DNA of 64,000 bases from Elusimicrobiota bacterium (GTDB taxonomy: Bacteria > Elusimicrobiota > Elusimicrobia > UBA1565 > UBA9628), in assembly GCA_016212825.1 (NCBI GenBank), contig JACRDS010000026.1:31413-95412 (forward strand), written 5' to 3'. Under the pieces are notes generated by a model. It ran no database searches and was not told the origin of the DNA. It worked only from the letters and a program-made list of their open reading frames with translations. Shown here one piece after another: positions 23,056 through 37,455 of the stretch; position 1 is the first letter of the stretch; every line of letters begins with the position of its first letter. The translations under genes were made by a program, and so were the position numbers.

Positions 23056-23661
23056 ATGACGACCGAAGGGGCATCAGTGCTGCCGGGAGAAGGGCCATTG
23101 CGCGTTCTGCCAGTATCGCGGGAGAGACTCCGTTTCATCGGGGACATCCGGCAGGAGGGCGGACAGGATGTCGGCTTGTGCTATCAATGCCGGAAGTGCA
23201 CCGCGGGGTGCCCCGTCGTCGATGAGATGGACCTGACTCCCACGCAGGTCATCCATGCGGTCCGCCTGGGGCTGCGCGATCTCGTCCTGGACAGCAAGAC
23301 CATATGGATCTGCGCGTCTTGCGAAACTTGCACGACCAGATGCCCGCAGGAGGTGGACATCGCCAGGGTCATGGATGCGGCCCGCATCCTGGCGCGCCGG
23401 GAGGGCCGGCGCCCGAGAATCCCTGAGGTCGCCGCTTTCCACAGATCCGTGCTCGAGAGCCTCCGGATGTTCGGAAGGCTTTACGAGTTGGGGGCGATCG
23501 GCGCGCTCAAGCTCAGGACCATGAGGTTGACCGAGGACCTCGACCTCGGGCTCAGGATGTTCAAGAAGGGCAAATTCCGATTCATCCCGGCATTCGCGAA
23601 CGTCCTGGCGACCAACAGGATCTTCCGGAGGGTCAAGAAGGCTGAGAGGGCAAGAACATGA
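23056..23661 (+). CDS. Heterodisulfide reductase subunit C-like protein (two [4Fe-4S] ferredoxin motifs)
   Basis: CYQCRKCTAGCPV and CASCETCTTRCPQ, with HdrC-like length and layout. Confidence 0.75.
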   Translation: MTTEGASVLPGEGPLRVLPVSRERLRFIGDIRQEGGQDVGLCYQCRKCTAGCPVVDEMDLTPTQVIHAVRLGLRDLVLDSKTIWICASCETCTTRCPQEVDIARVMDAARILARREGRRPRIPEVAAFHRSVLESLRMFGRLYELGAIGALKLRTMRLTEDLDLGLRMFKKGKFRFIPAFANVLATNRIFRRVKKAERART

Positions 23662-24539
23662 GGTTCGCATATTATCCCGGTTGCTCGCTTCATTCCACGG
23701 GCCGCGAGTACGACGCGTCTTTCCGGGAGGTGTGCGCCAGACTCGGCTTGGAGCCGGACGAGGTCGAAGGCTGGACCTGCTGCGGCGCTTCCAGCGCGCA
23801 TGCGACCTCGCGCCTTCTCTCGGTGGCGCTGGCCGCGGACAACCTCGCCCGCGTCGAGACCGCGGGTCACAAGGACGTCGTCGTGCCGTGCGCCTCGTGT
23901 TTTTCAAGGTTCAAGGACGCCACGCACGAGATCGAGAGCGATCCCGGCATGAAAGCCGAGATCGGCGGGATATTGGGACGGCCCTTCTCCAATTCCGTGA
24001 AAACCATCCACCCGCTGGAACTGCTGGATAAGATGGGAGAGGAGGGGAGGCTCGGGGCGGCGCCGGTCAAGGAGATGCCGGGAGTGAGGGCCGTCTGCTA
24101 CTACGGCTGCCTCTTGACGCGCCCTCCCAAGGTCACCCAATTCGACGATTGCGAGTACCCTATGAGCATGGATAGGCTGCTCGGGAGGTTCGGCGTGCGG
24201 ACGCTGGACTGGTCGTACAAGACCGACTGCTGCGGCGCCGGTTTTGGATTGACTAGGCCCGCGATAGTCTGCAAGCTGGTCAAGAAGATCCTGGACAATG
24301 CCTCGGCGGCGGGCGCCAATGTCGTGGCGGTCGCCTGTCCATTGTGCCATGCCAACCTGGATTCCAGACAGGCTGATTTGAACCGCGCCGGCGGCAACGG
24401 CGCAGGCCCAGGCGCGTACAAGATGCCGGTGCTCTACTTCACGCAGTTGATCGGGCTGGCCCTGGGCGCGGCGCCGGAGAGTCTGGGCCTGGGGAGCCAT
24501 CTGGTCGAGACCGCTCCAGTACTGGGAATGATGAGATGA
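23658..24539 (+). CDS. Heterodisulfide reductase subunit B-like protein (two CCG cysteine-rich domains)
   Basis: Motifs WTCCGAS...VVVPCASCF and DCCGAGFG...VACPLCHANL. Confidence 0.8.
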   Translation: MRFAYYPGCSLHSTGREYDASFREVCARLGLEPDEVEGWTCCGASSAHATSRLLSVALAADNLARVETAGHKDVVVPCASCFSRFKDATHEIESDPGMKAEIGGILGRPFSNSVKTIHPLELLDKMGEEGRLGAAPVKEMPGVRAVCYYGCLLTRPPKVTQFDDCEYPMSMDRLLGRFGVRTLDWSYKTDCCGAGFGLTRPAIVCKLVKKILDNASAAGANVVAVACPLCHANLDSRQADLNRAGGNGAGPGAYKMPVLYFTQLIGLALGAAPESLGLGSHLVETAPVLGMMR

Positions 24540-25453
24540 GCGAAGCAAAAACCAACGACGGGAAAATCGGAGCCGCTCTGGTCGTCGGCGGCGGCATAGG
24601 GGGAATGCAGGCGGCCCTGGATCTGGCCGACTCCGGCATCAAGGTCTATCTGGTCGACAAGGAACCGTCCATCGGCGGAGTCATGGCCAAGCTGGACAAG
24701 ACCTTCCCCACCAACGACTGCGCCATGTGCACGATGGCGCCCAGGCTCGTGGAGGTCGGCAGGAACAAGGATATCGAGATTATCTCGCTGGCCGATGTGG
24801 AGAATCTCAGCGGCGGACCTGGCAATTTCACGCTGACCTTGCGCAAGAAGCCGCGTTTCGTGAAGGAGGACAAATGCACCGGTTGCGGCACCTGCGTGAC
24901 GAATTGTCCCGTGCGAAACGAGATCTATCTGGACGTCAAGCTGGATGAGATAAAGCTTGAGGACGCGGATATGTCCAAGACGACGGCGATACTGGAACGG
25001 TACAAGGGCAGGAAAGAAGACCTGATCGCTATTTTGCAGGACATCAACGCCGAGTACAGGTATCTGCCGGAATTCGTGCTGAAATACATGGCGCGCAAGT
25101 TGGATGTGCCTTACAGCCAAGTATACAGCATCGCCACTTTCTACACCGCTTTCAGCCTGGTGCCCAAAGGGAAATACAAGATTTCCGTGTGCCTGGGAAC
25201 GGCCTGTCATGTCAGAGGGGCTCAGCGTATCATGGAGAGCCTGGAAAGAGAGCTGGATATCAAGAACGGGGGGACGACCAAGGACATGTTGTTCAGCCTG
25301 GAATCCGTCAGGTGCATCGGGTGCTGCGGTCTGGCTCCGGTTTTCGCGATCAACGAGGAGCTTTACGGAAAGGTCTCGCAGGGGAAGGTCCCGCAAATAA
25401 TCGAAAAATACCGGAAGGCGGAAGTCAAGGACAAGGCCTATGCAAAAACTTAA
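24536..25453 (+). CDS. Fusion protein. The N-terminal about 130 aa is the first half of a HdrA FAD-binding domain. The C-terminal about 170 aa is a NuoE/HoxE-like thioredoxin-fold [2Fe-2S] subunit
   Basis: GAALVVGGGIGGMQAALDLADSGIKVYLVDKEPSIGGVMAKLDKTFPTNDCAMC and CTGCGTCVTNCPV are HdrA N-terminal hallmarks. SVCLGTACHVRGA...VRCIGCCGLAPV carries the NuoE Cys pattern. Confidence 0.7.
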   Translation: MSEAKTNDGKIGAALVVGGGIGGMQAALDLADSGIKVYLVDKEPSIGGVMAKLDKTFPTNDCAMCTMAPRLVEVGRNKDIEIISLADVENLSGGPGNFTLTLRKKPRFVKEDKCTGCGTCVTNCPVRNEIYLDVKLDEIKLEDADMSKTTAILERYKGRKEDLIAILQDINAEYRYLPEFVLKYMARKLDVPYSQVYSIATFYTAFSLVPKGKYKISVCLGTACHVRGAQRIMESLERELDIKNGGTTKDMLFSLESVRCIGCCGLAPVFAINEELYGKVSQGKVPQIIEKYRKAEVKDKAYAKT

Positions 25454-25823
25454 GCCTGAGGATCTGGGCAAGATCAGCGAAAGGATGAAGGGCGTGGTCA
25501 ATCTGCGCGACGGCGCGTATTGCGCAAAGATCACCGTTCATATGGGGACATGCGGGATAGCCGCCGGCGCCCGGAAAGTGATGACGGCCCTTCTGGCCGT
25601 TGTGGCGGAGAAGGGGAACAAGGATGTCCTGGTCACGACTTCGGGCTGCGCCGGGCTGTGCGGCCGCGAACCGATGGCCACTGTCGAACTGCGGGGTGAG
25701 GCGCCCGTGAAATACGGCAACCTGGACGAGGCCAAGATTAAAGAGATCTTCGACCAGCATGTCCTGGGCAAGAAGATCGTGACTGAATACGCGATCGGCA
25801 TAGGCAGTGAAAGGGTTTCCTAA
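25440..25823 (+). CDS. Small thioredoxin-like [2Fe-2S] ferredoxin (HndB-like)
   Basis: 127 aa. VHMGTCGIAAGARKV...TSGCAGLCGREP. This is the position a HndB/HydB-N type protein usually occupies, between NuoE-like and NuoF-like genes. Confidence 0.6.
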   Translation: MQKLKPEDLGKISERMKGVVNLRDGAYCAKITVHMGTCGIAAGARKVMTALLAVVAEKGNKDVLVTTSGCAGLCGREPMATVELRGEAPVKYGNLDEAKIKEIFDQHVLGKKIVTEYAIGIGSERVS

Positions 25824-27627
25824 GGATACCGTGGGAAATACAACCAGGACTCATTTGATGGTCTGCGCGGGTACGGGCTGCGTTTCGGCCAAGTGCTTTA
25901 AAATCAAGGAAGCCTTGGAGCGCGAGCTCAAGAAACATGATCTTTGCGAAGAGGTGCAGATCGTCATGACCGGGTGCAACGGATTCTGCGCCCAGGGCCC
26001 GATCATGGTCGTGCAGCCCGAGGGCATCTTCTACAACATGCTCAAAGAGGAAGACATCCCGCATCTGGTCGCGGAGCACTTCCTGAAAGGACGGCCGGTA
26101 AAGAAGCTGATGTTCACCCCGCCTCAGGAAAAAGCCCCTGTCCCGCTGATGAAGGATATCGGGTTCTTCAGCAAACAGTCGCTGCTGATATTGAGAAACA
26201 GGGGTCTGATAGACCCTGAGAATATCGACGAGTATATCGCCAGGAACGGTTATGCCGCCTTCTCCAAAGCCGTGACCTCGATGGCGCCGGATGAAGTCAT
26301 CGCAGAGATCAGGAATTCCGGTCTGAGAGGCAGGGGCGGCGCCGGATTCCCTACCGCCAAGAAGTGGGAGCACTGCAGGCATGCCCCAGGAGAGCCGAAA
26401 TACATCATATGCAACGCCGACGAGGGCGACCCCGGCTGTTTCCAGGACAGGAGCATACTCGAGGGCGACCCGCATTCGGTGATCGAAGGCATGCTCATAG
26501 GGGCGTATGCGATAGGTTCAAGGCACGGGTATATCTATGTGCGGAATGAATATCCTCTGGCGATCAAGAGATTCTCGACAGCATTGAGCCAGGCGCGGCA
26601 ATACGGCCTGTTGGGCGATGATGTCCTGGGGACGAAATTTTCTTTTGACATCAGCATAAGCAGGGGGGCGGGCGCGTTCGTATGCGGAGAATCAAGCGCC
26701 TTGATGGCTTCCATCGAAGGCAAGATCGGGGAGCCGAGGTATAAGCATATCCACGCCACGGAGAAGGGGTTGTGGGATAAGCCGACCGTCCTGAATAATG
26801 TCAAGACCTGGGCCAGCGTCCCTTCGATCATAAGGCACGGCGCGGAGTGGTTCGCCAAGATCGGGACGGAGACTTCCAAGGGGACGATGGTCTTCTCGCT
26901 TGTGGGCAAGATCAAGAATACCGGGCTTATCGAGGTCCCGATGGGCATCTCGCTCAGGGAGATCATCTACGATATAGGAGAGGGTCTCATAGGCGACAGG
27001 AAATTCAAAGCGGTCCAGACCGGCGGGCCGTCAGGCGGATGCCTGCCTGAATCGTGCCTTGATTTGCCGGTGGATTACGAATCATTGACGGAGGCCGGCT
27101 CCATGATGGGTTCCGGCGGGATGATCGTGCTGGATGAAGACAACTGCATGGTGGACGTGGCGAGGTATTTCCTGGACTTTTTGAAGGGAGAATCCTGCGG
27201 CAAGTGCACGGCCTGCAGGGATGGCATCGAGGCGATGTACGAGTGTTTGAACGATATCTGCGAAGGGAAAGGGAAGGAGAAAGACATCGAGATGCTCGAG
27301 GAATTGGCCGGGGCAGTCAAGGATGCCTCCCTTTGCGGACTAGGCGCCTCAGCGCCCAATCCGGTTTTGAGCACGATACGCTACTTCCGGGACGAGTATG
27401 ACGCCCATATCCGGGACAAGAAGTGCCCTGCGGGAGTCTGCAAAGCGTTGATCCAATACTCCATAGATGCCGAGAAGTGCACCGGGTGCACGCTGTGCGC
27501 CAAGAAGTGCCCCAGCGAGGCGATCACCGGAGAGCGCAAGGCCAAGCATGCCATCGACCTGGAGAAGTGCATCAAGTGCGGCGTCTGCCGTGAGGTATGC
27601 AAATTCAAGGCGGTCGTGGTCAACTGA
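25807..27627 (+). CDS. NuoF-like NAD(H)-binding FMN/[4Fe-4S] flavoprotein. It has an N-terminal thioredoxin-like 2Fe-2S domain and a C-terminal 2x[4Fe-4S] ferredoxin domain (HndC/HydB-like)
   Basis: GLRGRGGAGFPTAKKW (NADH/FMN site), ESCGKCTACRDG (N3 cluster), and C-terminal CTGCTLCAKKCP / CIKCGVCREVC. The start is uncertain: GTG 25807 or ATG 25858. Confidence 0.85.
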   Translation: MKGFPKDTVGNTTRTHLMVCAGTGCVSAKCFKIKEALERELKKHDLCEEVQIVMTGCNGFCAQGPIMVVQPEGIFYNMLKEEDIPHLVAEHFLKGRPVKKLMFTPPQEKAPVPLMKDIGFFSKQSLLILRNRGLIDPENIDEYIARNGYAAFSKAVTSMAPDEVIAEIRNSGLRGRGGAGFPTAKKWEHCRHAPGEPKYIICNADEGDPGCFQDRSILEGDPHSVIEGMLIGAYAIGSRHGYIYVRNEYPLAIKRFSTALSQARQYGLLGDDVLGTKFSFDISISRGAGAFVCGESSALMASIEGKIGEPRYKHIHATEKGLWDKPTVLNNVKTWASVPSIIRHGAEWFAKIGTETSKGTMVFSLVGKIKNTGLIEVPMGISLREIIYDIGEGLIGDRKFKAVQTGGPSGGCLPESCLDLPVDYESLTEAGSMMGSGGMIVLDEDNCMVDVARYFLDFLKGESCGKCTACRDGIEAMYECLNDICEGKGKEKDIEMLEELAGAVKDASLCGLGASAPNPVLSTIRYFRDEYDAHIRDKKCPAGVCKALIQYSIDAEKCTGCTLCAKKCPSEAITGERKAKHAIDLEKCIKCGVCREVCKFKAVVVN

Positions 27628-27644
27628 CCCCGGCAAGGACAAGG

Positions 27645-27992
27645 ATGAAGCTCAGGGAGATCTGCGAGATACTGGAAGCGGACATCGTCCATGGGGAGGA
27701 TCCGGACCGGGAGATCGACAAGGTGGGGGCCGCAGACCTGATGAGCGATGTGCTGACCCACAGCACGCGGGGTTCGCTGCTGCTCACGGGCCTGACGAAT
27801 TCCCAGGTGATCCGCACCGCTGAGATGTCGGATATCGAGGCCGTTTGTTTCGTGAGGGGGAAAAGGCCGCAGGCCGGCGTCATAAAGCTTGGAGAGGAAA
27901 TGGGCATCCCCGTGCTGGTGACGAGATTCTCGATGTACGAAGCCTGCGGGAAGCTGTACATGAAAGGGCTGCGGGGCTGTGAGCATAATTAG
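27645..27992 (+). CDS. DRTGG domain protein
   Basis: DLMSDVLTHSTRGSLLLTGLTN...GIPVLVTRFSMYEACGKLY. This is the small regulatory protein typical of NuoEF-containing hydrogenase loci. Confidence 0.6.
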   Translation: MKLREICEILEADIVHGEDPDREIDKVGAADLMSDVLTHSTRGSLLLTGLTNSQVIRTAEMSDIEAVCFVRGKRPQAGVIKLGEEMGIPVLVTRFSMYEACGKLYMKGLRGCEHN

Positions 27993-27994
27993 GC

Positions 27995-28909
27995 ATGAAA
28001 GAGGTCACCAAGATCCAGGAGCTCGTGTACGAGCTGAGGATGCGGGACGTGATGAGGAAGGATGTGATCTCCGTCAGCCCCGACATGCAGATGGGCCGGT
28101 TGAGGGAATTGTTCAAGACCAAGCGCATATCCGGGACGCCCGTGGTCGACGGCGGCGGGCTGGTCGGGATCGTGAGCATAGAGGATTTCATCAAGTGGCT
28201 CTCCGGCGGCGGCGGGGAGTGCCGGATCTCCGAGAAGATGACGCGGCGGGTGGAGACGTTCTACGACGACGAGGCGCTGGTGCATGCCTTGACCAAGATG
28301 GAGAGATCCGGTTACGGCAGGTTCCCGATCATCGACCGGCAGACCGGCGGAATGTGCGGCATCGTGACCAAAGGGAACATCATCGAGGGTCTGCTCAAGA
28401 AGATCGAGATCGACTATCACGAGGAGGAGGTCCGCAAGTACCGGGCCAGCCACATCTTCGAGGACATCCGGGCGGACAAGTCCACGCTGATCTGTCAGTA
28501 CCGGATCGCCGGGAGGAAGTTGACCGAAGCGGGCGAGACCGCCAGCGGGCTGAAAACGACGTTGAAGAGGTTGGGCTTCCATCCGGACATCGTCAGGAGG
28601 TCCGCGATCATCGCCTATGAGGCGGAGACCAACGTCATCATCTATGCCAAGGAAGGGAAGATGATCGTGAAGGTGGAGCCGGCCGAGATATACATGAAGG
28701 TCGAAGACAAGGGCCCGGGCATCCCCGACGTCGAAAAAGTGCTGGAGCCCGGGTTTTCGACCGCCCCGGACTGGGTCAGGGAGCTCGGGTTCGGCGCCGG
28801 GATGGGGCTGCCCAATATCAAGAAGTGTTCGGATCGGATGGTCTTGAATTCCACCGTCGGCAAGGGCACCTGCCTTGAGGCGACCGTGGTCATAGGGCCG
28901 ACGCGATGA
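27995..28909 (+). CDS. CBS-pair plus histidine-kinase-like ATPase (anti-sigma-factor / Ser-protein-kinase-like) protein
   Basis: Two CBS motifs (VMRKDVISVSPD..., GRFPIIDRQTGGMCGIVTKGNII) and a C-terminal HATPase_c (VEDKGPGIPDVEKVLEPGFST...GAGMGLP). Confidence 0.7.
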   Translation: MKEVTKIQELVYELRMRDVMRKDVISVSPDMQMGRLRELFKTKRISGTPVVDGGGLVGIVSIEDFIKWLSGGGGECRISEKMTRRVETFYDDEALVHALTKMERSGYGRFPIIDRQTGGMCGIVTKGNIIEGLLKKIEIDYHEEEVRKYRASHIFEDIRADKSTLICQYRIAGRKLTEAGETASGLKTTLKRLGFHPDIVRRSAIIAYEAETNVIIYAKEGKMIVKVEPAEIYMKVEDKGPGIPDVEKVLEPGFSTAPDWVRELGFGAGMGLPNIKKCSDRMVLNSTVGKGTCLEATVVIGPTR

Positions 28910-29250
28910 AGCTGCAAAAGCTGATCGAGCGCATGGATCTCGAAGTGAGAAGCGGGCGCGGCGCTCCGGATGTGGAAATCCGCCGCGGCTACGTGAGCGA
29001 TCTGTTGAGCGACGTCATCGCGCATGCTCAAGAGGCTGAGTTGTGGATCACGCTTCAGACGCACGTCAACATCGTGGCCGTGGCCAGCATGAAAGGTCTG
29101 GCCGGCATCATCTTGGTCCAAGGCCGGGAGCCGGAGCGGGCCACGGTCGAGAGGGCGGAAAAGGAAAAAGTCCCCATTCTGGTCACGAAACTTCCCGCTT
29201 ATGAAATGGCAGGGAAGCTCTATGACCTGCTGAATGCTGAAAAGGGTTAG
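28906..29250 (+). CDS. DRTGG domain protein (second copy)
   Basis: VSDLLSDVIAHAQEAELWITLQTHVN...VPILVTKLPAYEMAGKLY, parallel to the first DRTGG protein. Confidence 0.6.
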   Translation: MKLQKLIERMDLEVRSGRGAPDVEIRRGYVSDLLSDVIAHAQEAELWITLQTHVNIVAVASMKGLAGIILVQGREPERATVERAEKEKVPILVTKLPAYEMAGKLYDLLNAEKG

Positions 29251-29977
29251 AGGCGATTTGCATATCCACACTTGTTTGTCCCCATGCGCCGATGACGGGA
29301 TGACGCCCGCCGCCATCGTCAGGGAGGCGCGGAGGAAGCAGGTGGGGTTGGTCGGCATCTGCGACCATAATTCCATGGAGAATGTGGAAGCGGTGATGAG
29401 GGCGGGCGAACGGGAGAATGTCGGGGTCTTGGGCGGGATGGAGATCACAAGCAAAGAGGAAGTGCATATCCTGGCCGTCTGTGATGGCCTGGCCCCGCTG
29501 GGCAACATGCAGAAGACCTTGTATGAGCACCTGGAGGGAGAGAACGACGAAAGCAGGTTCGGCCCGCAGGACATCGTCAACGAATTCGATGAGAAGACCG
29601 GCTCGAACAGCAGGCTCTTGATCGGCGCCACGGATCTGGGCATCCAGAACGTGGTCGAGTTGATCCGCAGCGCCGGGGGGCTGGCGATCGCCTCGCACAT
29701 CGACAGGGAGGGCTTCAGCATCATGTCCCAGCTGGGTTTCATACCCGAGTCGCTGCGTCTTGACGGCTTGGAAGTGTCTCCCCTGACCACGGTCGAGGCG
29801 GCGCGGCGGAGATTCCCGGATATCGGCAAGTACCCTTTGCTGCGCTCGTCGGATGCGCATTCCCTGGGCGACATCGGGAGGCAGACCACGACGTTCCTGG
29901 TGGCGGATATGAGTTTCGCCGAGATCCGGAAGGCGCTGGCGGGAGAGGATGGCAGAAGGATCGAATATCAGGCCTGA
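29234..29977 (+). CDS. PHP-domain phosphoesterase
   Basis: The N-terminus DLHIHTCLSPCAD plus downstream His/Asp motifs (ICDHNSMEN, IASHIDREG, SSDAHS). Confidence 0.7.
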   Translation: MLKRVRGDLHIHTCLSPCADDGMTPAAIVREARRKQVGLVGICDHNSMENVEAVMRAGERENVGVLGGMEITSKEEVHILAVCDGLAPLGNMQKTLYEHLEGENDESRFGPQDIVNEFDEKTGSNSRLLIGATDLGIQNVVELIRSAGGLAIASHIDREGFSIMSQLGFIPESLRLDGLEVSPLTTVEAARRRFPDIGKYPLLRSSDAHSLGDIGRQTTTFLVADMSFAEIRKALAGEDGRRIEYQA

Positions 29978-29983
29978 GCGGAT

Positions 29984-30445
29984 TTGGAAGACCTATCTTT
30001 GCATGTTCTTGATATCGCTGAAAACTCGATCAGGGCGCTCGCGGAGAATGTCGTGATCAGGATCATCGAGGAGCCCGGGAAGGACCTGCTCACCCTGGAG
30101 ATCGAAGACGACGGACAAGGGATGGATGAGGGACTGCTCGAGAAGGCGCTGGATCCGTTCTTCACGACCAAGGCCGGCAAGAGGGTGGGGCTGGGGCTTC
30201 CGCTTTTGAGCCAGGCGGCCAGGGCCGGCGGAGGAGATATGCAGATCGAATCCGGGCCCGGAGCGGGCACCCGGATAAGGGCCACATTCAGATACAGCCA
30301 TCCTGACAGAAAGCCTTTGGGGGATATGCCGGCCACCATGCGGGCTTTGATGGCCGCAAATCCGGCCGTGAATTTCGTGTTTGTGCACAAGAAAGAGGGC
30401 GAAACGCACCGCGTAGAGAGCCGCGAAATGGGGTCCCAAGGATAA
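29984..30445 (+). CDS. Stand-alone histidine-kinase-like ATPase (HATPase_c) protein
   Basis: EIEDDGQGMDEGLLEKALDPFFTTK...GLGLPL. TTG start with an upstream SD. Confidence 0.6.
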   Translation: MEDLSLHVLDIAENSIRALAENVVIRIIEEPGKDLLTLEIEDDGQGMDEGLLEKALDPFFTTKAGKRVGLGLPLLSQAARAGGGDMQIESGPGAGTRIRATFRYSHPDRKPLGDMPATMRALMAANPAVNFVFVHKKEGETHRVESREMGSQG

Positions 30446-30448: not shown

Positions 30449-33400
30449 ATGGCGAGTTCGAACATGAAGACGGATTTCATCATCAATGGGAAAGAGGCGT
30501 CGGTCGAGGGGGCGGCTACGGTGCTGGAGGCCTGCGCGAAACTGAGCCTGAAGATACCGACGCTCTGCGCGCACAAGGCGCTGCTCCCGTACGGAGCCTG
30601 CAGGCTCTGCCTGGTGGAGATCGGCAAGCCCCCCTACGGCAAGATCCAGACGGCGTGCACTTACCCCCTGAAGCCGGGGCTGGTCGTCTCCACGGACACG
30701 GAAAGGATCATGAAAGCCAGGAAGATCGTAATGGAACTCCTCCTGGCCAGGTGCCCGGATGTGAAGGCGATACAAGATCTGGCCGGAGAGCTCGGAGTCG
30801 CCGGCACGAGGTTCCACAAGAAGGACAGCGACTGCATACTGTGCGGCATGTGCATCAGGGTCTGCCGGGAACGGATGGGGGTCGAGGCATTGGGCTTCGC
30901 CAACCGGGGTTCCAAGAGAGAAGTGAGGCCTCCTTTCGACGCCCTCTCCGAGTTCTGCCAGGCCTGCGGCGCCTGTGAATTCATATGTCCGACGGGAAAG
31001 ATGAAGGTGCTGGAGGTGGGAAGAAGGGCGGCGCGGCCGATACCTTTCGAATTCAACGAGGGCTTGATCTCCAGGCCCGCGGTGCATATTCCCTACCCCC
31101 AGGCCGTCCCCAACAAGGCCGCGCTGGACGGCAGGTACTGCGTCCGCCTGCTGAAGGACAAATGCGGAATATGCCAGGTGTTCTGCGAAGCCGGCGCGAT
31201 AGACTATGAGCAGAAAGAGGAGCGCATCGAGTTGAAGGCGGGCGCCGTGATCCTGGCTCCGGGATTCGAGCTCTTCGACGCCAAGCTCAAGGGTGAGTTG
31301 GGTTACGGACGCTATCCCAACGTCATCACGAGCCTGGAGTTCGAGCGGATATTGAACGCCTCCGGGCCGTTCTCGGGCAAGGTGCTCAGGCCTTCCGACC
31401 GGCGCCATCCCAAGAAGATCGCCTTCATCCAATGCGTCGGGTCCCGGGATTGCGACAACAACTATTGCTCCTCCGTGTGCTGTATGTATGCGACCAAGGA
31501 AGCCATCATCGCGATGGAACACGAGAAGGGCCTGGAGTGCGCCATCTTCTTCATCGACCTGAGGGCATTCGGCAAGGGGTTCGACGCCTATTATGAGCGG
31601 GCCAAGAAGGCCGGCGTGAGGTATGTCCGATGCCGTCCGTCTTCCATCAAGGAGGACCCCTCAAGCCGGGATCTGGAAGTGAGGTACGAGGCCGAGGACG
31701 GGACGGTGGTGTCCGAGGGGTTCGATCTCGTGGTGCTTTCCAGCGGACTCAGACCCACGCGGGAAGCCCGGGATATGGCCAAGACCTTCGGCCTGTCCCT
31801 CAATGAGCACGGTTTCTGCAGGACTGGGACGTTCGCCCCGGTGGAGACGGGGCGCGCGGGGGTCTACGTGTGCGGGCCGTTCACGGAGCCCAAAGACATC
31901 CCGGAAACGGTCATGCAGGCCAGTGCCGCCGCGGCCAAGACTTTGTCCCTGCTGTCGTCGGCGCGGGGTTCGCTGATCGAGCCCAAGGGATTCCCCCCGG
32001 AGAAGGATGTCTCCGGGCGGCCGCCCAGGATCGGAGTCTTCGTCTGCCACTGCGGCACCAATATCGCGGGCGTGGTCAATGTGCCGGAAGTCGTCGAGTA
32101 TGTGAAGGGATTGCCGGATGTGGCCTATGCCGAGAACGATCTCTACACCTGCTCGAACGATGCTCAAGAAAGGATCAAGCAGTTGGTCCGGGAGCACGAT
32201 TTGAATCGGGTCGTGGTGGCGTCCTGCACGCCCAGGACGCACGAGCCCCTGTTCCGGAACACCATCCGGGAAGCGGGCGTGAATCCGTATCTTTTCGAAA
32301 TGGCCAATATCAGGGACCAATGCTCGTGGGTCCACATGCACGAGCCGGAGCAGGCCACGCGCAAGGCCAAGGACCTTCTGCGGATGGCCATCGCCAAGGC
32401 CCGGCTCCTGGAGCCGCTCCAGCGCCGGACCATGAAGGTCCATCCCGACGCCCTCGTGATCGGAGGGGGGGTGAGCGGCATGACCGCCGCGCTCGACATG
32501 GCGAAGCAGGGCATCACGGTGCACCTGGTGGAGCGCGAAGGCGCGCTCGGCGGCGGCCTGCGCAGGACGAGATACCTTCTGGATGGAGAGGACCCCAAGG
32601 GCGAGCTCGACCGACTGGTGGCGAACGTGCTCGGAGAGAAGCTGATCCGGGTCCATCTGAATTCCAAGATCGTCGCGATGGAGGGAAGCTGGGGCAATTT
32701 CAAGACGAAGGTCTCGGGCGTCGGCAACGGCGGCGCGGCGGAGTTCGGCCATGGCGTGGTGGTGGTGGCGACCGGCGCGCGGGAATACCAGCCTCAGGAG
32801 TATCTCTACGGGAAGGATGAGAGGGTGACGACCCAGCTCGAGCTGGAGTCCCTCATCGCGGACGGCAAGTTCAGGGCGAAATCCGTGGTGATGATCCAGT
32901 GCGTCGGTTCCCGGAACGATGAGCATCCCTATTGCAGCAGGGTCTGCTGCACCGAGGCGGTGAAAAACGCCCTGAAGATCAAGGCCACGAGCCCCGACTC
33001 CGAGGTGTACGTCCTTTATAGGGACGTCCGGACCTACGGCTTCCGCGAGCAGTACTATCGTCAGGCCCGGGAGAAGGGCGTGGTCTTCCTGCGCTACGAC
33101 GACGACAAAAAACCCGCGGTCGAGGTCAAGGAAGGCGGATTGCAGGTCTCTGCTTTCGACCCCATACTCAAGACGACCGTCTCCATCGACGCGGACCTGC
33201 TGGTCCTCTCGGCGGGGATCGTCGCCAATCCCGACAGCGCCGAGGTGGGGCAGATGCTGAAGGTGCCCTTGAACCAGGACAAGTTCTTCTTGGAAGCGCA
33301 CATGAAGCTGAGGCCCGTGGATTTCGCGAGCGATGGGATATTCCTCTGCGGCCTGGCGCATTCGCCGAAGGATCTGACCGAGTGCCTGATGCAGGCCAGC

Positions 33401-33751
33401 GGCGCCGCCGCGAGGGCCTCGGCGGTGGCGCTCAAGGGCAGCGTCGAGCTCGAGGCCAACGTTTCCCGGGTCCTCGACGAGAACTGCGACGGCTGCGCCT
33501 ATTGCGTGGACCCTTGCCCGTACAAGGCCATCACGCTCATCGAATACATGTTCAACGGCGCCATCAAGAAGACGGTGGAAGCCAACGAGAGCGTGTGCAA
33601 GGGCTGCGGGGTCTGCCAGGCCACCTGCCCCAAGAAGGGCATCGCCATAATGGGCTTCAGGCTGGAGCAGATATCCGCCATGGCCGAGGCCGCCCTGCAG
33701 GCGGGCGGAGCGCCGAGCGGAAAACCGGCCGAAGAGCTCGTGCGGCAGTAG
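30449..33751 (+). CDS. 1,100-aa multi-domain iron-sulfur flavoprotein. It has a NuoG/HydA-N-like 2Fe-2S plus [4Fe-4S] module, then the C-terminal half of a HdrA FAD domain, then a second complete HdrA-like unit with a C-terminal 2x[4Fe-4S] domain
   Basis: FIINGKEASVEGAATVLEACAKLSLKIPTLCAHKALLPYGACRLCLVEI (2Fe-2S). CILCGMCIRVC / CQACGACEFICP. IAFIQCVGSRDCDNNYCSSVCCMYATKEA (HdrA signature). DALVIGGGVSGMTAALDMAKQG (FAD-binding motif). VVMIQCVGSRNDEHPYCSRVCCTEA (second HdrA signature). CDGCAYCVDPCP / CKGCGVCQATCP. Confidence 0.8.
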   Translation: MASSNMKTDFIINGKEASVEGAATVLEACAKLSLKIPTLCAHKALLPYGACRLCLVEIGKPPYGKIQTACTYPLKPGLVVSTDTERIMKARKIVMELLLARCPDVKAIQDLAGELGVAGTRFHKKDSDCILCGMCIRVCRERMGVEALGFANRGSKREVRPPFDALSEFCQACGACEFICPTGKMKVLEVGRRAARPIPFEFNEGLISRPAVHIPYPQAVPNKAALDGRYCVRLLKDKCGICQVFCEAGAIDYEQKEERIELKAGAVILAPGFELFDAKLKGELGYGRYPNVITSLEFERILNASGPFSGKVLRPSDRRHPKKIAFIQCVGSRDCDNNYCSSVCCMYATKEAIIAMEHEKGLECAIFFIDLRAFGKGFDAYYERAKKAGVRYVRCRPSSIKEDPSSRDLEVRYEAEDGTVVSEGFDLVVLSSGLRPTREARDMAKTFGLSLNEHGFCRTGTFAPVETGRAGVYVCGPFTEPKDIPETVMQASAAAAKTLSLLSSARGSLIEPKGFPPEKDVSGRPPRIGVFVCHCGTNIAGVVNVPEVVEYVKGLPDVAYAENDLYTCSNDAQERIKQLVREHDLNRVVVASCTPRTHEPLFRNTIREAGVNPYLFEMANIRDQCSWVHMHEPEQATRKAKDLLRMAIAKARLLEPLQRRTMKVHPDALVIGGGVSGMTAALDMAKQGITVHLVEREGALGGGLRRTRYLLDGEDPKGELDRLVANVLGEKLIRVHLNSKIVAMEGSWGNFKTKVSGVGNGGAAEFGHGVVVVATGAREYQPQEYLYGKDERVTTQLELESLIADGKFRAKSVVMIQCVGSRNDEHPYCSRVCCTEAVKNALKIKATSPDSEVYVLYRDVRTYGFREQYYRQAREKGVVFLRYDDDKKPAVEVKEGGLQVSAFDPILKTTVSIDADLLVLSAGIVANPDSAEVGQMLKVPLNQDKFFLEAHMKLRPVDFASDGIFLCGLAHSPKDLTECLMQASGAAARASAVALKGSVELEANVSRVLDENCDGCAYCVDPCPYKAITLIEYMFNGAIKKTVEANESVCKGCGVCQATCPKKGIAIMGFRLEQISAMAEAALQAGGAPSGKPAEELVRQ

Positions 33752-33754
33752 GAG

Positions 33755-34213
33755 ATGATCATGGCTGAGACAGTGATGGAGCAGGAACAGCAGGCGGAGA
33801 TCCTCAATCCGGACCCGGTGGTCATCGCCTTCTGCTGCAATTGGTGCTCCTACACCGGCGCGGACCTGGCCGGGACCTCCCGGCTCCAGTATCCGCCCCA
33901 GATCCGCATCATCCGGGTCATGTGTTCGGGCATGGTGCACCCCAACCTGGTCATAGACGCCCTGACCAAGGGCGCCGACGGCGTGATGATCTGCGGCTGC
34001 CACCTGGGCGACTGCCATTACATAGACGGCAACTACAAGACCGAGAAGCGGGCCGATGCCATCAAGCTCATGTTGGAGGACTTCGGCCTGGAGCCCGAGC
34101 GCTTCCGCCTGGAGTGGGTCTCCGCGTCGGAGGGCCCGAAGTTCGCCCAAGTCATGACCGACATGGTCGCGGCCTTGAAAAGGCTGCCGCCGAGCTCCTA
34201 CAAGGTGGGGTGA
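33755..34213 (+). CDS. mvhD: MvhD-like hydrogenase/heterodisulfide reductase iron-sulfur subunit
   Basis: IAFCCNWCSYTGADLAG...IRVMCSGMV...DGVMICGCHLGDCHY. The likely start is ATG 33761. Confidence 0.8.
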   Translation: MIMAETVMEQEQQAEILNPDPVVIAFCCNWCSYTGADLAGTSRLQYPPQIRIIRVMCSGMVHPNLVIDALTKGADGVMICGCHLGDCHYIDGNYKTEKRADAIKLMLEDFGLEPERFRLEWVSASEGPKFAQVMTDMVAALKRLPPSSYKVG

Positions 34214-34218
34214 GCGTT

Positions 34219-34416
34219 ATGACCCAGAGCGCGAGATTCTTCGACGACAAGAAGTTCATGTGGGATGGGAAAGTCTACGAGGGACGCTCGGAGGCCGAGG
34301 AGTCCGAGCGGGGCTACAGGAAGGACGCCTTTGAGACGCGGGTCGTGGAGGACGGCGGGAAGTTCCTGGTCTATTCCCGCCGGGTGGCCGCCCAGCAGAC
34401 GGCCGTAGAGGGATAA
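34219..34416 (+). CDS. Small hypothetical protein (65 aa) between mvhD and the hydrogenase small subunit gene
   Basis: ATG 34219 has an upstream GGTGGGG. It reads MTQSARFFDDKKFMWDGKVYEGRSE... and has no recognisable motif. The track shows it only as the tail of a longer overlapping ORF. Confidence 0.3.
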   Translation: MTQSARFFDDKKFMWDGKVYEGRSEAEESERGYRKDAFETRVVEDGGKFLVYSRRVAAQQTAVEG

Positions 34417-34438
34417 ACTGTTAAGGAGGGAGAATAGA

Positions 34439-35413
34439 ATGCCTGTGAAAGTCGCGGAGGAATGGCTTAACATCTGCGGTGGCTGCGAGGTCAGCATACT
34501 CGACATCGGCGAGCCGCTCTTGGACCTGCTGCCGAACCTGGAGTTCGTGCACATGCCCGTGCTCATGGACCACAAGTACCACGGCCAGACCGGCGAGGGC
34601 GATCCGCACAAGATCGACATCCCGGACGCGGACGTGGGCATCATCTCCGGCGGCATCCGCAACGAGAAGGAGAAGCAGGTCGCCCTGGCGATGCGGGCCA
34701 AGTGCAAGACCGTGGTGGCCCTGGGCTCCTGCGCCTGCTACGGCGGCATCCCGGCTTTGGCCAACATGTGGTCCCTGACCGACATGTGCGACAAGGTCTA
34801 CAAGGACAGCAAGTCCACGGAGAAGGCCGACACGCCCAAGACCGACCTGCCGCCGCTCCTGGACCGCGTCTACGCCCTCGACGAGGTCATCAAGGTGGAC
34901 CTGGCCATCCCGGGCTGCCCCACCTCCTCGGACTGGATCAAGGAAGCCCTGCTCTCCTTGCTCTCGGGCAAGCCCTTCGCCATGCCGGATAAGTCCGTGT
35001 GCGACGAGTGCCCGACCAAGCGCGAGAAGAAGGCCTCCGGCGGCACTATCAAGCGGCCCCTGGAGAACATGGCCTTCAAGCAGGACGCGCCCTGGGAGGA
35101 GACCCGCTGCTTCATGGAGCAGGGCTACCTGTGCCTGGGCCCGGTGACCCGGGCCGGCTGCGCGGGCATGAGCATGGAGGCGGGCGAGGCCAAGGTGCCG
35201 CGCTGCATCAAGGGCTACATGCCCTGCCGGGGCTGCTTCGGCCCGGTCAAGAAGGGCTCCAACCCGCTCGTGGACATGATGGGCGCGCTGTCCTCCATCG
35301 GCCTCAAGGCCGACCAGGTCAGCGACCGCCGCGCCATGCTCAGCCGCTACGTGGGCGGCCACGGCATGCTCAAGCCGCTTCCGGCCAAGGCGCCGGCGCC
35401 GGTGAAGAAGTAG
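34439..35413 (+). CDS. mvhG: [NiFe] hydrogenase small subunit (group 3, MvhG-like)
   Basis: NICGGCEVS, LGSCACYGGIP, GCPTSSDW and the C-terminal Cys cluster CRGCFGP. Confidence 0.85.
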   Translation: MPVKVAEEWLNICGGCEVSILDIGEPLLDLLPNLEFVHMPVLMDHKYHGQTGEGDPHKIDIPDADVGIISGGIRNEKEKQVALAMRAKCKTVVALGSCACYGGIPALANMWSLTDMCDKVYKDSKSTEKADTPKTDLPPLLDRVYALDEVIKVDLAIPGCPTSSDWIKEALLSLLSGKPFAMPDKSVCDECPTKREKKASGGTIKRPLENMAFKQDAPWEETRCFMEQGYLCLGPVTRAGCAGMSMEAGEAKVPRCIKGYMPCRGCFGPVKKGSNPLVDMMGALSSIGLKADQVSDRRAMLSRYVGGHGMLKPLPAKAPAPVKK

Positions 35414-35435
35414 GGACTTCTCAGGAGGCACTGCA

Positions 35436-36881
35436 ATGGCTAAGACTCTCACCATCGCGCCGGTCTCGAGGCTGGAAGGCCACGCCAAGGTCACCATCAA
35501 CCTCGACGACGCGGGCGACGTCAAGGACACCTTCGTCAACATCGTGGAACTGCGCGGCTTCGAGAAGTTCTGCCAGGGCCGCCCGGTCGAGGAGCTGCCC
35601 CGCATCGTGACCAGCATCTGCGGGGTCTGCCCCTGGTCGCACCACCTGGCCTCGTCGAAGGCCTGCGACGCGGTCTTCGGCGTGACCCCGCCGCCGGCGG
35701 GGCGCAAGCTGCGCGAGCTGTGCAACTCGGTGGCCTACACCGAGGAGCACATCCTGCACTTCTTCTTCCTGGCCGGTGCGGACTACGTGCTGGGACCGGG
35801 CGCCGACTACAAGACCCGCAACGTCATCGGCATCGCGGCGGCCGCGCCCGAGATCGGCAAGAGGGTGGTGCGCAACCGCCAGCTCGGCGCGCGCATGCTC
35901 AACGTCATCTCGGGCAAGTCCATCCACCCCGTAACCTCGGTGCCGGGCGGCTTCTCCAAGCCGCTCACCGCCAAGGAGCGCGACCTGTGCCTCCCGCTGG
36001 CCGAGGAGATCCTGGAGTTCGCCAAGTGGGGCATGGCCTGGGCCAAGTCCGAGGTGTTCCCCAAGTACCTCGACGCGGTCAAGTCCGTGGGCGTCATCAA
36101 GACCGGGTACATGGGCACGGTGCGCGGCGACGGGACCATGGACCTCTACGACGGCAAGATCCGGCTCATGAAGCCGGACGGGAGCTTCGCGGACTTCGCG
36201 GACTCGGACTACCTCGATTACATCGAGGAGAAGGTCCTGCCCTGGTCCTACATGAAGTTCCCCTACGCCAAGTCCTGGAACGAGGGCTTCTCCATGGACC
36301 TGGCCGCGCCCAAGGGCATCTACCGCACCAACACCCTGGCGCGCATCAACGCCTGCGACAAGCTCGCCACCCCGCTGGCGCAGAAGGAGCTGGAGGAGTT
36401 CCGCAGGGGTTTCGGCCGCCCCTGCCACCTGACCCTGCTCTACAACTGGGCCCGGCTCATCGAGCTGCTCTACAACGCGGAGTACGCGGTGCAGCTGCTC
36501 AAGGACCCGGAGATCACGAGCAAAGAGACCCGCGTGCCGGTGACGCCTCGGGCCGGCCGGGGCGTGGGGCACGTGGAGGCGCCGCGCGGCACCCTCATCC
36601 ACGACTACGAGACCGACGCGCAGGGGCTGGTGACCAACGTCAACCTCATCGTGGGCACCACGCACAACAACGCGCCCATCAACATGGCGGTCAAGCAGTC
36701 GGCGCAGAGCCTCATCAAGGGCGGCAAGTACGACGAGGCCCTCCTCAACACCGTGGAGATGTCCATCCGCGCCTACGACCCGTGCTTCTCCTGCGCGACC
36801 CACAACCTCGACGGCCGCCTGGCCGTCAAGGTGGACGTGGTGGGAGCCGACGGGGAGGTCCGGGCCACGCTGGCCAACTGA
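35436..36881 (+). CDS. mvhA: [NiFe] hydrogenase large subunit (group 3, MvhA-like)
   Basis: N-terminal RLEGH and the L1 motif ICGVCPWSHH. C-terminal L2 motif DPCFSCATH. Confidence 0.9.
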   Translation: MAKTLTIAPVSRLEGHAKVTINLDDAGDVKDTFVNIVELRGFEKFCQGRPVEELPRIVTSICGVCPWSHHLASSKACDAVFGVTPPPAGRKLRELCNSVAYTEEHILHFFFLAGADYVLGPGADYKTRNVIGIAAAAPEIGKRVVRNRQLGARMLNVISGKSIHPVTSVPGGFSKPLTAKERDLCLPLAEEILEFAKWGMAWAKSEVFPKYLDAVKSVGVIKTGYMGTVRGDGTMDLYDGKIRLMKPDGSFADFADSDYLDYIEEKVLPWSYMKFPYAKSWNEGFSMDLAAPKGIYRTNTLARINACDKLATPLAQKELEEFRRGFGRPCHLTLLYNWARLIELLYNAEYAVQLLKDPEITSKETRVPVTPRAGRGVGHVEAPRGTLIHDYETDAQGLVTNVNLIVGTTHNNAPINMAVKQSAQSLIKGGKYDEALLNTVEMSIRAYDPCFSCATHNLDGRLAVKVDVVGADGEVRATLAN

Positions 36882-36933
36882 GGCAAGAGTACGGGGGTGC
36901 CCGCCCTGGCGGGCGGGCGCCCCGCCCCTTGAT

Positions 36934-37455
36934 ATGCAGACCACCCATCGCGACCCGGCCGAGGAGCGCACCGAGGCCATAGACGCCGCGGCGGCGGACG
37001 TGCTCATCATCGGCTGCGGCAACGTGCTCATGGGCGACGACGGCTTCGGCCCGGCCTTCATCAAGCACCTGGAGCAGACGGGCGGGCTGCCCGAGGGCGT
37101 AGGCCTGCTCGACGCGGGCACGGGCGTGCGTTCCTTCCTCTTCGGCCTGGTGCTCGCGGACCAGAAGCCCCGGCGCATCCTCATCGTCGACGCCGTGGAC
37201 ATGGGCCGCAAGCCCGGCGAGGTCTTCCACATAGACCTGGAGGCCGTGCCCGCGCTGAAAGCCGACGATTTCTCTTTGCACCAGCTGCCCACCTCCAACA
37301 TGCTGCGCGAGCTGCGCGACAGCTGCGGCGTGGAGGTGGGCGTGCTGGCCGTACAGGTCGAGTCCATCCCGGACCGGGTGGACTGGGGCCTCTCACCCCC
37401 CATGATCCAGGCCCTGGAGCCGGCGCGCGCCGCGGTCCTGGCCTGGCTGGGCTGA
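36934..37455 (+). CDS. Hydrogenase maturation endopeptidase (HycI/HyaD/FrhD family)
   Basis: VLIIGCGNVLMGDDGFGPAFIKHL, the canonical GxGNxxxxDDGxG motif. Confidence 0.8.
   Translation: MQTTHRDPAEERTEAIDAAAADVLIIGCGNVLMGDDGFGPAFIKHLEQTGGLPEGVGLLDAGTGVRSFLFGLVLADQKPRRILIVDAVDMGRKPGEVFHIDLEAVPALKADDFSLHQLPTSNMLRELRDSCGVEVGVLAVQVESIPDRVDWGLSPPMIQALEPARAAVLAWLG

Follow-up and report, generated by a model that had tools for sequence, protein, structure and literature searches.

Here we describe a row of 16 genes, about 14 kb in length, that lies at positions 23056-37455 on the + strand of a 64,000-nucleotide stretch of DNA (the window) from an Elusimicrobiota bacterium (GenBank assembly GCA_016212825.1, contig JACRDS010000026.1, positions 31,413 to 95,412 of the forward strand). 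The row encodes a [NiFe] hydrogenase, homologues of the heterodisulfide reductase (Hdr) subunits HdrA, HdrB and HdrC, and an NAD(H)-binding module related to that of bifurcating hydrogenases. An earlier reading made from the letters alone (the sequence-only reading) had proposed a single same-strand cluster comprising HdrC, HdrB and HdrA domains, a complete NADH module (NuoE-, HndB- and NuoF-like), a NuoG-N-like module fused ahead of HdrA and, following the fusion gene, MvhD, the two [NiFe] subunits and their protease. Using Pfam, NCBIfam and phmmer searches against PDB sequences for domain calls, and orthologue alignments to check cofactor ligands, we recovered each of these domains in its proposed place, the HndB-like one weakly.

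The row begins with genes for an HdrC-like protein with two [4Fe-4S] clusters (23056-23661; Pfam Fer4_17/Fer4_8) and an HdrB-like protein with two CCG domains (23658-24539; Pfam CCG twice, E 1.2e-21). These are followed by a fusion of 305 amino acids (aa) that joins an N-terminal part of HdrA to a NuoE/HydC domain (HdrA-N::NuoE; 24536-25453, PDB phmmer), a thioredoxin-like [2Fe-2S] protein resembling HndB/HydD (25440-25823) and a NuoF-like protein of the HydB/BfuB kind (25807-27627; Pfam Complex1_51K, NADH_4Fe-4S, two Fer4 and 2Fe-2S_thioredx). Five putative regulatory genes at 27597-30445, to which the sequence-only reading had not drawn attention, then encode a DRTGG protein (27597-27992, with the likely start at a Met at ~27645), a CBS-CBS-HATPase protein (27995-28909), a second DRTGG protein (28906-29250), a PHP protein (29234-29977) and a HATPase protein (29984-30445), all called with Pfam and NCBIfam. 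The remainder of the row specifies a NuoG-N::HdrA fusion of 1100 aa (30449-33751; PDB phmmer), an MvhD-type [2Fe-2S] adaptor of 152 aa (33755-34213; Pfam FlpD E 5.5e-55, NCBIfam VhuD E 2.7e-37), a conserved 65-aa protein, also new relative to the earlier reading (34219-34416, between mvhD and mvhG), an MvhG/VhuG-like [NiFe] small subunit (34439-35413; Pfam Oxidored_q6, NCBIfam VhuG E 1e-60), a Mvh/Vhu-like group 3 large subunit (35436-36881; NCBIfam VhuA E 7e-133) and a maturation endopeptidase of the FrhD/HycI family (36934-37455; Pfam HycI E 5.9e-23, NCBIfam hydrog_prot E 1.4e-36).

Packing of the genes is tight. Overlaps and gaps are all of 52 nt or less, with the sole exception of a 225-nt gap that holds the 65-aa gene, and stop and start codons overlap along the row. 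A promoter and terminator scan of the window gave match counts equal to those of shuffled sequences and was uninformative on operon structure, so the case for an operon is made by gene packing and synteny.

The NAD(H) module and the split HdrA

The NuoF-like protein matches the bifurcating hydrogenase subunit HydB over its full length (residues 14-603 to 7t2r_B, E 3.8e-248; full-length also to 7q4v_B and 8a6t_B). It consists of an N-terminal thioredoxin (Trx)-like [2Fe-2S] domain, a site for flavin mononucleotide (FMN) and NAD(H), a [4Fe-4S] domain and a C-terminal ferredoxin-binding domain with two [4Fe-4S] clusters; ligands in the window protein include C20/25/57/61 and two CxxCxxCxxxC motifs at 558-568 and 588-598. 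The N-terminal Trx-like and C-terminal ferredoxin (Fd) clusters separate bifurcating from non-bifurcating NuoF homologues, and BfuB is defined by an FMN/NAD(H) domain with both of these extra cluster domains (PMC9304861). All three are present here, as are a BfuC counterpart, namely a NuoE-like domain with its [2Fe-2S] ligands, and a counterpart of the NuoG-like BfuA within the 1100-aa protein. By these signatures the NADH module, which is complete as had been proposed, is of the bifurcating HydBC/Bfu type. Assignment of the 25440-25823 protein to HndB/HydD is weak (Pfam 2Fe-2S_thioredx E 0.0015; NCBIfam 2Fe-2S ferredoxin E 2.5e-7). Its residues H34, C38, C70 and C74 are conserved in 43 orthologues. 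The window protein keeps these three cysteines only, plus His34 and His107, and there are hints of a mixed His/Cys ligation of its presumed [2Fe-2S] cluster.

The gene described as NuoE-like does encode a NuoE/HydC domain, but ahead of this domain come the first ~130 residues of an HdrA unit, which the sequence-only reading had overlooked. In the 305-aa protein, residues 12-135 align to HdrA ~144-264 (5odc_A, 8rvu_a) and residues 143-297 to HydC (8a6t_C, E 2.5e-45), the NuoE/HydC-like domain itself spanning 151-293. The HdrA part comprises the start of the Rossmann fold that binds flavin adenine dinucleotide (FAD), a CxxC pair and the first Cys motif of the inserted ferredoxin domain. Ligands C62/C65, C114/117/120/124 and C219/224/260/264 are invariant in 46 orthologues, the last group being the complete [2Fe-2S] ligand set of the NuoE-like (BfuC) part. 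The rest of this HdrA unit (unit 1) is found in the 1100-aa protein, in which residues 8-191 form the NuoG-N/HydA-N module with a [2Fe-2S] and two [4Fe-4S] clusters (match to the NuoG-like chain 9mqx_A, E 1.3e-38, plus HydA N-termini), its three ligand sets being invariant in an alignment of family members. Residues ~197-520 then supply the second half of the inserted Fd domain, the FAD domain and a lysine, K350, with residues 197-450 resuming HdrA from residue 259 in the PDB phmmer alignment. Residues 525-1075 form a second HdrA unit (unit 2), not remarked upon before, with an N-terminal cluster domain, an FAD domain with K839 and a C-terminal domain with two [4Fe-4S] clusters (PDB phmmer segments 525-755 and 932-1075). 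Unit 1 lacks the N-terminal domain, and unit 2 lacks both the inserted Fd domain and the CxxC. The cluster cysteines and both lysines of the 1100-aa fusion are invariant in 121 family members.

HdrA unit 1 is cut inside the inserted Fd domain, right after the first CxxCxxCxxxCP motif, and its halves are joined in frame to the N-terminus of HydC and the C-terminus of NuoG-N, the gap between them holding a HydC-HndB-HydB-(regulators)-HydA-N cassette. HdrA-N (1-140) and residues 196-1100 are together colinear with an unsplit 1009-aa tandem HdrA from the metagenome-assembled genome (MAG) of a spirochaete, with 52% identity over 998 columns and the junction between '...CPV' and 'IPFEFNEGL'. The divided Fd domain retains four plus four invariant cysteines, C114/117/120/124 in the NuoE fusion and C231/239/242/246 in the 1100-aa protein (46 and 121 orthologues, respectively). 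In the two-cluster ferredoxin fold each cluster draws ligands from both motifs. Two polypeptides must therefore assemble around common clusters, which is incompatible with two separate enzymes and with an artefact of assembly. On this comparative evidence the HdrA split is real and would force the NuoE-like and 1100-aa proteins to associate. The sequence-only reading had likened the layout to a HydA whose H-cluster domain is replaced by HdrA and Mvh. Its NuoG-N docking part holds, whereas the replacement is too simple a picture, the Bfu cassette sitting inside a split tandem HdrA that resembles BamE of benzoyl-CoA reductase (see below).

A scan of one genome per species confirmed no fewer than 563 loci, spread over Acidobacteriota, Planctomycetota, Actinomycetota, Aminicenantes, Latescibacterota, Bacteroidota, Spirochaetota, Bipolaricaulota, Chloroflexota and further groups. 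Co-occurrence of NuoE/F, HdrA and Mvh, which the sequence-only reading had suggested searching for, was found in those of the split type that were examined, with the nuo-like and mvh genes co-conserved. Eighty loci were examined in detail (57 with the split fusion and 23 of a second, HdrL type) by tblastn with 15 window proteins, genes being counted only where the contig extends far enough; we refer to individual loci by L-numbers. All 80 come from MAGs or single-amplified genomes (SAGs), and they span more than 10 phyla. Co-presence in split-type loci is complete for HdrA-N::NuoE (43/43), NuoF (44/44) and MvhD (53/53) and high for the HndB-like protein (40/43), MvhG (40/46), MvhA (34/37) and the protease (33/36), which together with the packing bears out a single same-strand cluster. 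The regulatory genes occur in ~75% of related loci and are missing as a block from the others. More than 120 database clusters share the 1100-aa fusion at 61-68% identity and full coverage, more than 120 clusters of ~295 aa share the HdrA-N::NuoE architecture, and the gene order recurs in dozens of unrelated MAGs; by these counts the recurrence of the cluster is far beyond chance.

The same data bear on whether the row is one system at all. A HydBC-type NADH:ferredoxin module and Mvh-Hdr genes might be merely adjacent, or the split might be an assembly or frameshift artefact or reflect pseudogenes. The window does derive from a MAG, and GC content at third codon positions (GC3) differs along the row, at 0.72-0.89 from hdrC through the HATPase gene and 0.85 in the fusion gene versus 0.91-0.97 in mvhDGA and the protease gene and 0.92-0.98 in the flanks. 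Against this, an identical split point, intact frames and invariant ligands recur in MAGs and SAGs that were assembled independently and represent more than 10 phyla. Each half is joined in frame to its partner domain, NuoE or NuoG-N, and stop and start codons overlap along the row. We consider adjacency or artefact highly improbable, and rejected a pseudogene or misassembly as the origin of the split HdrA, which the shared split, the colinear halves and the invariant ligands contradict. The GC3 step, alongside an overall GC of 57-63% within the cluster versus 66-77% outside it, hints instead that the 5' two thirds of the cluster may be a more recent (horizontal) acquisition.

The hydrogenase and its presumed high-potential partners

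The [NiFe] large subunit has intact L1 and L2 motifs, with C62/C65/H69 and C450/C453/H456 invariant, and a C-terminal extension for proteolytic maturation; its PDB matches are 5odc_F (E 3e-118), 7t2r_D (E 4e-118) and 5xf9_D (E 8e-109). The small subunit has 13 conserved cysteines. MvhGA and MvhD thus provide what characterises MvhAGD, a group 3 large subunit with L1/L2, a small subunit with three clusters and an adaptor. The presence of MvhD and the best NCBIfam match, VhuA, point to group 3c over a 3d-like enzyme, short of a firm 3c call, and MvhA scores below the NCBIfam equivalog cut-off.

Electrons of high potential would leave the complex through HdrC and HdrB. The HdrC-like protein matches the NCBIfam qmoC N-terminal domain (E 5e-19) and CoB_CoM_SS_C (E 2e-18), both under the curated cut-offs; its eight cysteines are invariant in 19 orthologues, and it would link HdrA to HdrB. 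The HdrB-like protein gives a full-length match to methanogen HdrB structures (E ~1e-32), and C9/41/42/78/81 and C151/191/192/227/230 are invariant in 19 orthologues, so that both non-cubane sites are complete. The completeness of these ligands makes disulfide chemistry plausible, and the protein is the presumed high-potential disulfide-reducing site.

In related loci this module is exchanged. We classified it in the 40 split-type loci with more than 1.3 kb upstream of the HdrA-N::NuoE gene: directly upstream lie HdrC and HdrB in 16 and a QmoC-like protein in 14; the other 10 were placed in neither class, and four of them (L022, L044, L048, L056) have an HdrC-like match elsewhere in the locus. 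The QmoC-like protein, of 388 aa, joins an HdrC-like N-terminus to a membrane domain and matches NCBIfam qmoC end to end (E 7e-57), its relatives scoring 193 bits against a curated cut-off of 300. About half of related loci have such a protein in place of HdrCB; examples are L007, L010, L012, L028, L031, L035, L040 (1729-2895), L051, L054, L078 and most HdrL-type loci, such as L063 (8803-9972). The exchange suggests menaquinone as an alternative high-potential partner, and the alternation of HdrCB with a QmoC-like protein upstream fits a three-branch flavin site.

The 23 HdrL-type loci (L055, L058-L075, L077, L079 and L080 among them), mostly from acidobacterial MAGs, have no Bfu genes. They encode a single tandem HdrA of ~1480 aa (for instance L063 9962-14419), with a GltD/NfnB-like NAD(P)H domain placed between the two Cys motifs of the inserted Fd domain, in the gene order mvhG-mvhA-protease-small ORF-qmoC-like-hdrL-mvhD (ORF, open reading frame). 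A QmoC-like gene lies directly upstream in 21 of the 23. The Fer4_20 plus Pyr_redox_2 domain is found in the sister proteins of L063 and L068 and is absent from both HdrA-bearing proteins of the window. In 14 loci NuoF is a variant with a GltD-like domain after the [4Fe-4S] domain, where the tblastn alignment ends at about residue 550-580; in such a variant, NADP(H) or a second nucleotide site may replace or supplement ferredoxin. One example, a 1023-aa protein at L011 4013-7084, has Fer4_20 and Pyr_redox_2 after NADH_4Fe-4S, and Pfam finds no C-terminal Fd domain in it. Further variation was seen at L002 (46-3921), with a second MvhD, Flx-like FeS proteins and a PyrK-like FAD/NAD protein upstream; at L056 (13223-22949), with two unsplit 1009-aa tandem HdrA genes, HdrCB, MvhD and an FrhB/FdhB-like protein; and at L006 (13742-17224), with an additional HdrA of 842 aa, another MvhD and another copy of the 65-aa-type small ORF. 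Across these loci the constant core, as judged from domain content, is a tandem HdrA, MvhD, an Mvh-type hydrogenase and a pyridine-nucleotide module at the inserted Fd domain, with an HdrC-like outlet in most.

The 65-aa protein also recurs, its gene being present in 62 of the 80 related loci and in both cluster types. Residues K11, K12, W15, G17, A26, Y33, F38, V51, R54 and R55 are invariant, and the protein has no Cys. Searches for family and fold gave no informative match, while structure prediction returned a confident small beta-beta-alpha-beta-beta model. With 234 representatives in 1.84 billion proteins, it is by its distribution a specific marker of this hydrogenase family, and it could represent an accessory subunit or assembly factor not described before.

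Known systems and a proposed electron path

The closest characterised system, and the only characterised enzyme to combine Bfu with HdrA, is class II benzoyl-CoA reductase (BCRII), BamBCDEFGHI of Geobacter metallireducens, which joins Bfu, HdrA, MvhD and HdrBC-like parts (PMC9304861; bioRxiv 10.64898/2026.04.10.717634). In the main text of PMC9304861, Bam-Bfu is the only HdrA-containing Bfu type and no type of the present composition is listed; one supplement to it has no Hdr or Mvh entries. An April 2026 preprint reports from cryo-electron microscopy that BCRII links two distinct bifurcation modules in one supercomplex, that BamE is a fused HdrA dimer with a bifurcating TrxR1 (CxxC C59/C62 and a lysine) and a structural TrxR2, that an extension of BamF docks the NuoG-like BamI, and that low-potential electrons exit through the inserted Fd domain in HdrA as in BamE (bioRxiv 10.64898/2026.04.10.717634).

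Compared by description, the window has counterparts of BamD (HdrC plus HdrB), BamE, BamF, BamG, BamH and BamI. Its HdrA unit 1 has the CxxC pair (C62/C65) near the flavin and K350 after a CC motif, and the occurrence of CxxC in unit 1 but not in unit 2 matches the one bifurcating and one structural FAD of BamE. However, the tungsten module BamB/BamC is missing (a Pfam scan of the 16 cluster genes found no AOR/tungstopterin domain) and MvhGA stands in the third-module position. The BamE homologue is split, with its halves fused to the BamG and BamI homologues; MvhD, at a canonical 152 aa, has neither selenocysteine nor the extension found in BamF; both non-cubane motifs are complete in HdrB, while most BamD proteins have a degenerate distal cluster; and the Bfu module is attached at the inserted Fd domain, whereas Bam uses the C-terminal Fd domain. 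The sequence-only reading had not recognised the gene order. Our full-text literature searches likewise found no description of this order or architecture, with the proviso that an earlier mention may exist, but the combination of Bfu, HdrA, MvhD and HdrBC-like parts does have its precedent in BCRII. Each module is known already; their combination and the split layout appear, as far as we found, to be undescribed.

The methanogenic MvhAGD-HdrABC complex shares with the window homologues of MvhA, MvhG, MvhD, HdrA, HdrB and HdrC, all with their ligands and with Vhu/Mvh and HdrA/HdrA2 as the best-matching families. It differs in that methanogen HdrA is a single polypeptide that forms a homodimer, whereas the window HdrA is a fused heterodimer whose presumed ferredoxin-docking domain carries a covalently attached NAD(H)/ferredoxin module. 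Moreover, the host is a bacterium without CoM-S-S-CoB, and HdrB, HdrC and MvhA lie under the equivalog cut-offs. HdrL, a fusion of HdrA and the glutamate synthase small subunit in Desulfobacterium autotrophicum and Syntrophobacter fumaroxidans, has an NAD(P)H-binding module and is followed by mvhD. In acidobacterial sister loci an HdrL-type protein accompanies mvhGA, hycI, the 65-aa gene and a QmoC-like gene; a GltD-like domain is absent from the window, whose NAD(H) module is multi-subunit, of HydBC type, and delivered through the gene split. QmoABC consists of two HdrA-like flavoproteins, an MvhD-like domain and QmoC, which has an HdrC-like FeS domain and a membrane domain. Its likeness lies in the QmoC-like subunit of the relatives' loci, while the window has a soluble HdrC and HdrB, and Qmo has no hydrogenase or Bfu module. 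Judged by these comparisons, the cluster is not an equivalog of the methanogenic Mvh-Hdr, nor is it itself an HdrL, a Qmo complex or the NiFe-HydABCSL enzyme considered below, though it shares parts with each.

From domains, ligands and gene neighbourhoods we infer a complex, an electron path with its direction, and substrates. In our preferred reading, to which, taken together with the wiring set out below, we assign a probability of about 55%, all 16 genes specify a single soluble hydrogenase of many subunits that unites HydBC/Bfu-type and HdrA-type bifurcation modules. The bifurcating or confurcating megacomplex of the sequence-only reading is in this sense the most reasonable interpretation, with the complex itself deduced from gene content. 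A Bfu module of NuoE-like, HndB-like, NuoF-like and NuoG-N parts would be covalently spliced into the unit-1 inserted Fd domain of a tandem BamE-like HdrA, MvhD and MvhGA would supply or remove H2-derived electrons, and HdrC with HdrB would form the high-potential branch. With a methanogen-like entry, electrons would flow from H2 through MvhA, MvhG, MvhD and the C-terminal Fd domain to the unit-1 FAD. One electron would then pass through the adjacent [4Fe-4S] cluster and HdrC to HdrB, reducing a disulfide; in sister clusters it would pass to the QmoC-like subunit and probably to menaquinone. The low-potential electron would cross the split inserted-Fd clusters and the NuoG-N clusters to the HydBC core, reducing NAD+ and ferredoxin. 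The path should be reversible, with NADH, reduced ferredoxin and a thiol or quinol confurcated to H2.

Such methanogen-like wiring is favoured by the BamE-like unit 1, by the low-potential exit at the inserted Fd domain and by the canonical MvhD, whose lack of the BamF extension favours the canonical MvhG-MvhD-HdrA contact. A nucleotide module at the exit is further supported by the HdrL-type relatives, in which the GltD-like NAD(P)H-binding domain occupies the same inserted Fd domain, and we also count as support the nearby genes whose products generate NAD(P)H and reduced ferredoxin (malate dehydrogenase, isocitrate dehydrogenase, malic enzyme and 2-oxoacid:ferredoxin oxidoreductase). Literature potentials are -414 mV for H2, -140 mV for the heterodisulfide, -74 mV for menaquinone, about -280 to -320 mV for NAD and about -500 mV for ferredoxin. 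By these values, both reductants could be made from H2 at low partial pressure, and electrons at the level of a quinol or thiol could be raised to H2 by the reverse reaction.

The main rival reverses this flow along the lines of BCRII. NADH and reduced ferredoxin would be confurcated in HydBC and enter HdrA through the C-terminal Fd domain and MvhD as a mid-potential donor, the high-potential electron would go to HdrBC or to QmoC and quinone, and the low-potential electron would go to the [NiFe] site, yielding H2 even at high H2 pressure. It has in its favour that such flow is demonstrated or proposed in the only characterised enzyme with Bfu and HdrA, and that the host lineages are mostly fermenters needing an outlet for NADH and reduced ferredoxin; ackA, a Pta domain (in a malic-enzyme fusion, 45735-48020) and 2-oxoacid:ferredoxin oxidoreductase genes lie nearby in the window. 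The regulatory genes found in about three quarters of related loci point the same way, as we take them to resemble those of H2-evolving HydABC operons. Yet MvhD has no equivalent of the BamF extension by which BamI is contacted; covalent insertion of the Bfu module is at the domain serving HdrA and BamE as low-potential exit, and not at the entry; and reduction of H+ needs no electron below the potential of ferredoxin. In addition, the biochemically characterised group 3c enzymes all oxidise H2 in cells (PMC11216029). We therefore regard BCRII-like flow as unlikely, although it is the strongest competitor of the single complex with methanogen-like wiring.

A simpler alternative is raised by the likeness to HydABC hydrogenases, above all NiFe-HydABCSL of Acetomicrobium mobile, to which HydB, HydC and HydA-N match with E-values of 3.8e-248, 1.7e-39 and 6e-19 (7t2r chains B, C and A). 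The window enzyme might be an NADH/ferredoxin-dependent [NiFe] hydrogenase of that kind, or like FeFe-HydABC, in which HydBC alone bifurcates, the HdrA flavins and MvhD are a conduit, and HdrBC is auxiliary (e.g. a redox sensor or protective thiol reductase). The closeness of HydB and HydC to the A. mobile proteins, a large subunit that matches A. mobile HydL as well as it does MvhA, and the 10 of 40 split-type loci placed in neither the HdrCB nor the QmoC-like class upstream of HdrA-N::NuoE would all fit. Between NuoG-N and the hydrogenase, however, the window has ~900 residues of tandem HdrA plus MvhD and HdrCB, and ~1000 residues with two FADs are more than a simple conduit would require. 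The ligands of both HdrA units, of HdrC and of both non-cubane HdrB sites are all invariant, and the HdrC-like outlet is kept in most variants, with HdrCB or a QmoC-like protein directly upstream in 30 of 40 split-type and 21 of 23 HdrL-type loci and elsewhere in four more. This alternative is, in our estimate, less likely again than BCRII-like flow.

Several points weigh against the two-module complex with methanogen-like wiring. PDB E-values place the large subunit about as near to NiFe-HydL and Hox as to Mvh. HdrB scores 141.9 bits against an NCBIfam equivalog cut-off of 345 and HdrC 66.6 against 160, short of the equivalog level that marks CoM-S-S-CoB-reducing HdrB and HdrC. Both HdrA units retain the lysine (K350, K839), so that sequence alone does not settle which FAD bifurcates. 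Covalent adjacency of NuoG-N and the inserted Fd domain is no proof of an electron route, and the Bfu module of BCRII delivers its electrons to the C-terminal Fd domain by way of the MvhD homologue (bioRxiv 10.64898/2026.04.10.717634). A low-potential branch that ends in NAD+ is energetically odd unless H2 is scarce. Finally, every member among the loci listed comes from a MAG or SAG and none from a cultured organism. With these points in mind, we put forward only tentatively the more specific proposal of a widespread hydrogenase class in which HdrA-type and HydBC-type sites act in series, the low-potential HdrA branch being bifurcated again into NADH and reduced ferredoxin through an Fd domain ligated by two polypeptides.

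Genomic setting and significance

The cluster lies between two opposite-strand LysR regulators and a block of central-carbon genes. One of the former (22019-22951, - strand; Pfam HTH_1 and LysR_substrate) is divergent, 105 bp upstream of hdrC, and is a possible local regulator that we treat as context and not as a member of the system; the intergenic region between it and hdrC contains a promoter-like match at 22989-23017, of a kind no more frequent than in shuffled sequences. The central-carbon block, on the same strand as the cluster (39936-55138, + strand), comprises ackA and genes for an aminotransferase, PEP carboxykinase, citrate synthase, a malic enzyme-Pta fusion, malate dehydrogenase, aconitase, isocitrate dehydrogenase and 2-oxoacid:ferredoxin oxidoreductase. 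Immediately downstream of the cluster, two long ORFs overlap on opposite strands as competing gene candidates, one of 608 aa with no Pfam match (37457-39283, - strand) and one of 689 aa with an alpha/beta-hydrolase domain (37847-39916, + strand). Elsewhere in the window, a single ORF of 3491 aa (1427-11902, + strand) with a host-like GC3 of 0.95 encodes a giant protein, and tandem, overlapping genes specify paralogues of the prolipoprotein diacylglyceryl transferase Lgt (18571-19362 and 19347-20132, + strand).

The cluster would be the second case, after BCRII, of two linked bifurcation modules, with H2 as a substrate and a far wider spread. It bears on the long-standing question of what role bacterial Hdr/Mvh complexes play where CoM-S-S-CoB is lacking, and the natural exchange of HdrCB for a QmoC-like protein offers a concrete handle on the high-potential partner. 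The MAG studies that we consulted on comparable hydrogenase genes annotate these simply as 'MvhADG/HdrABC, group 3c' and base their models on the methanogen enzyme; where the cluster is present in such genomes, these models would leave out the attached NAD(H)/ferredoxin module. The insertion of a module into a ferredoxin domain, with clusters shared by two subunits, is also a case of modular enzyme evolution. If our proposal holds, bifurcation in series would allow anaerobes living in sediments, peat and aquifers to obtain NADH and reduced ferredoxin from traces of H2. In the opposite direction, electrons from a quinol or thiol would be raised to H2 with no need for a membrane potential, the unsolved step of many syntrophic oxidations.

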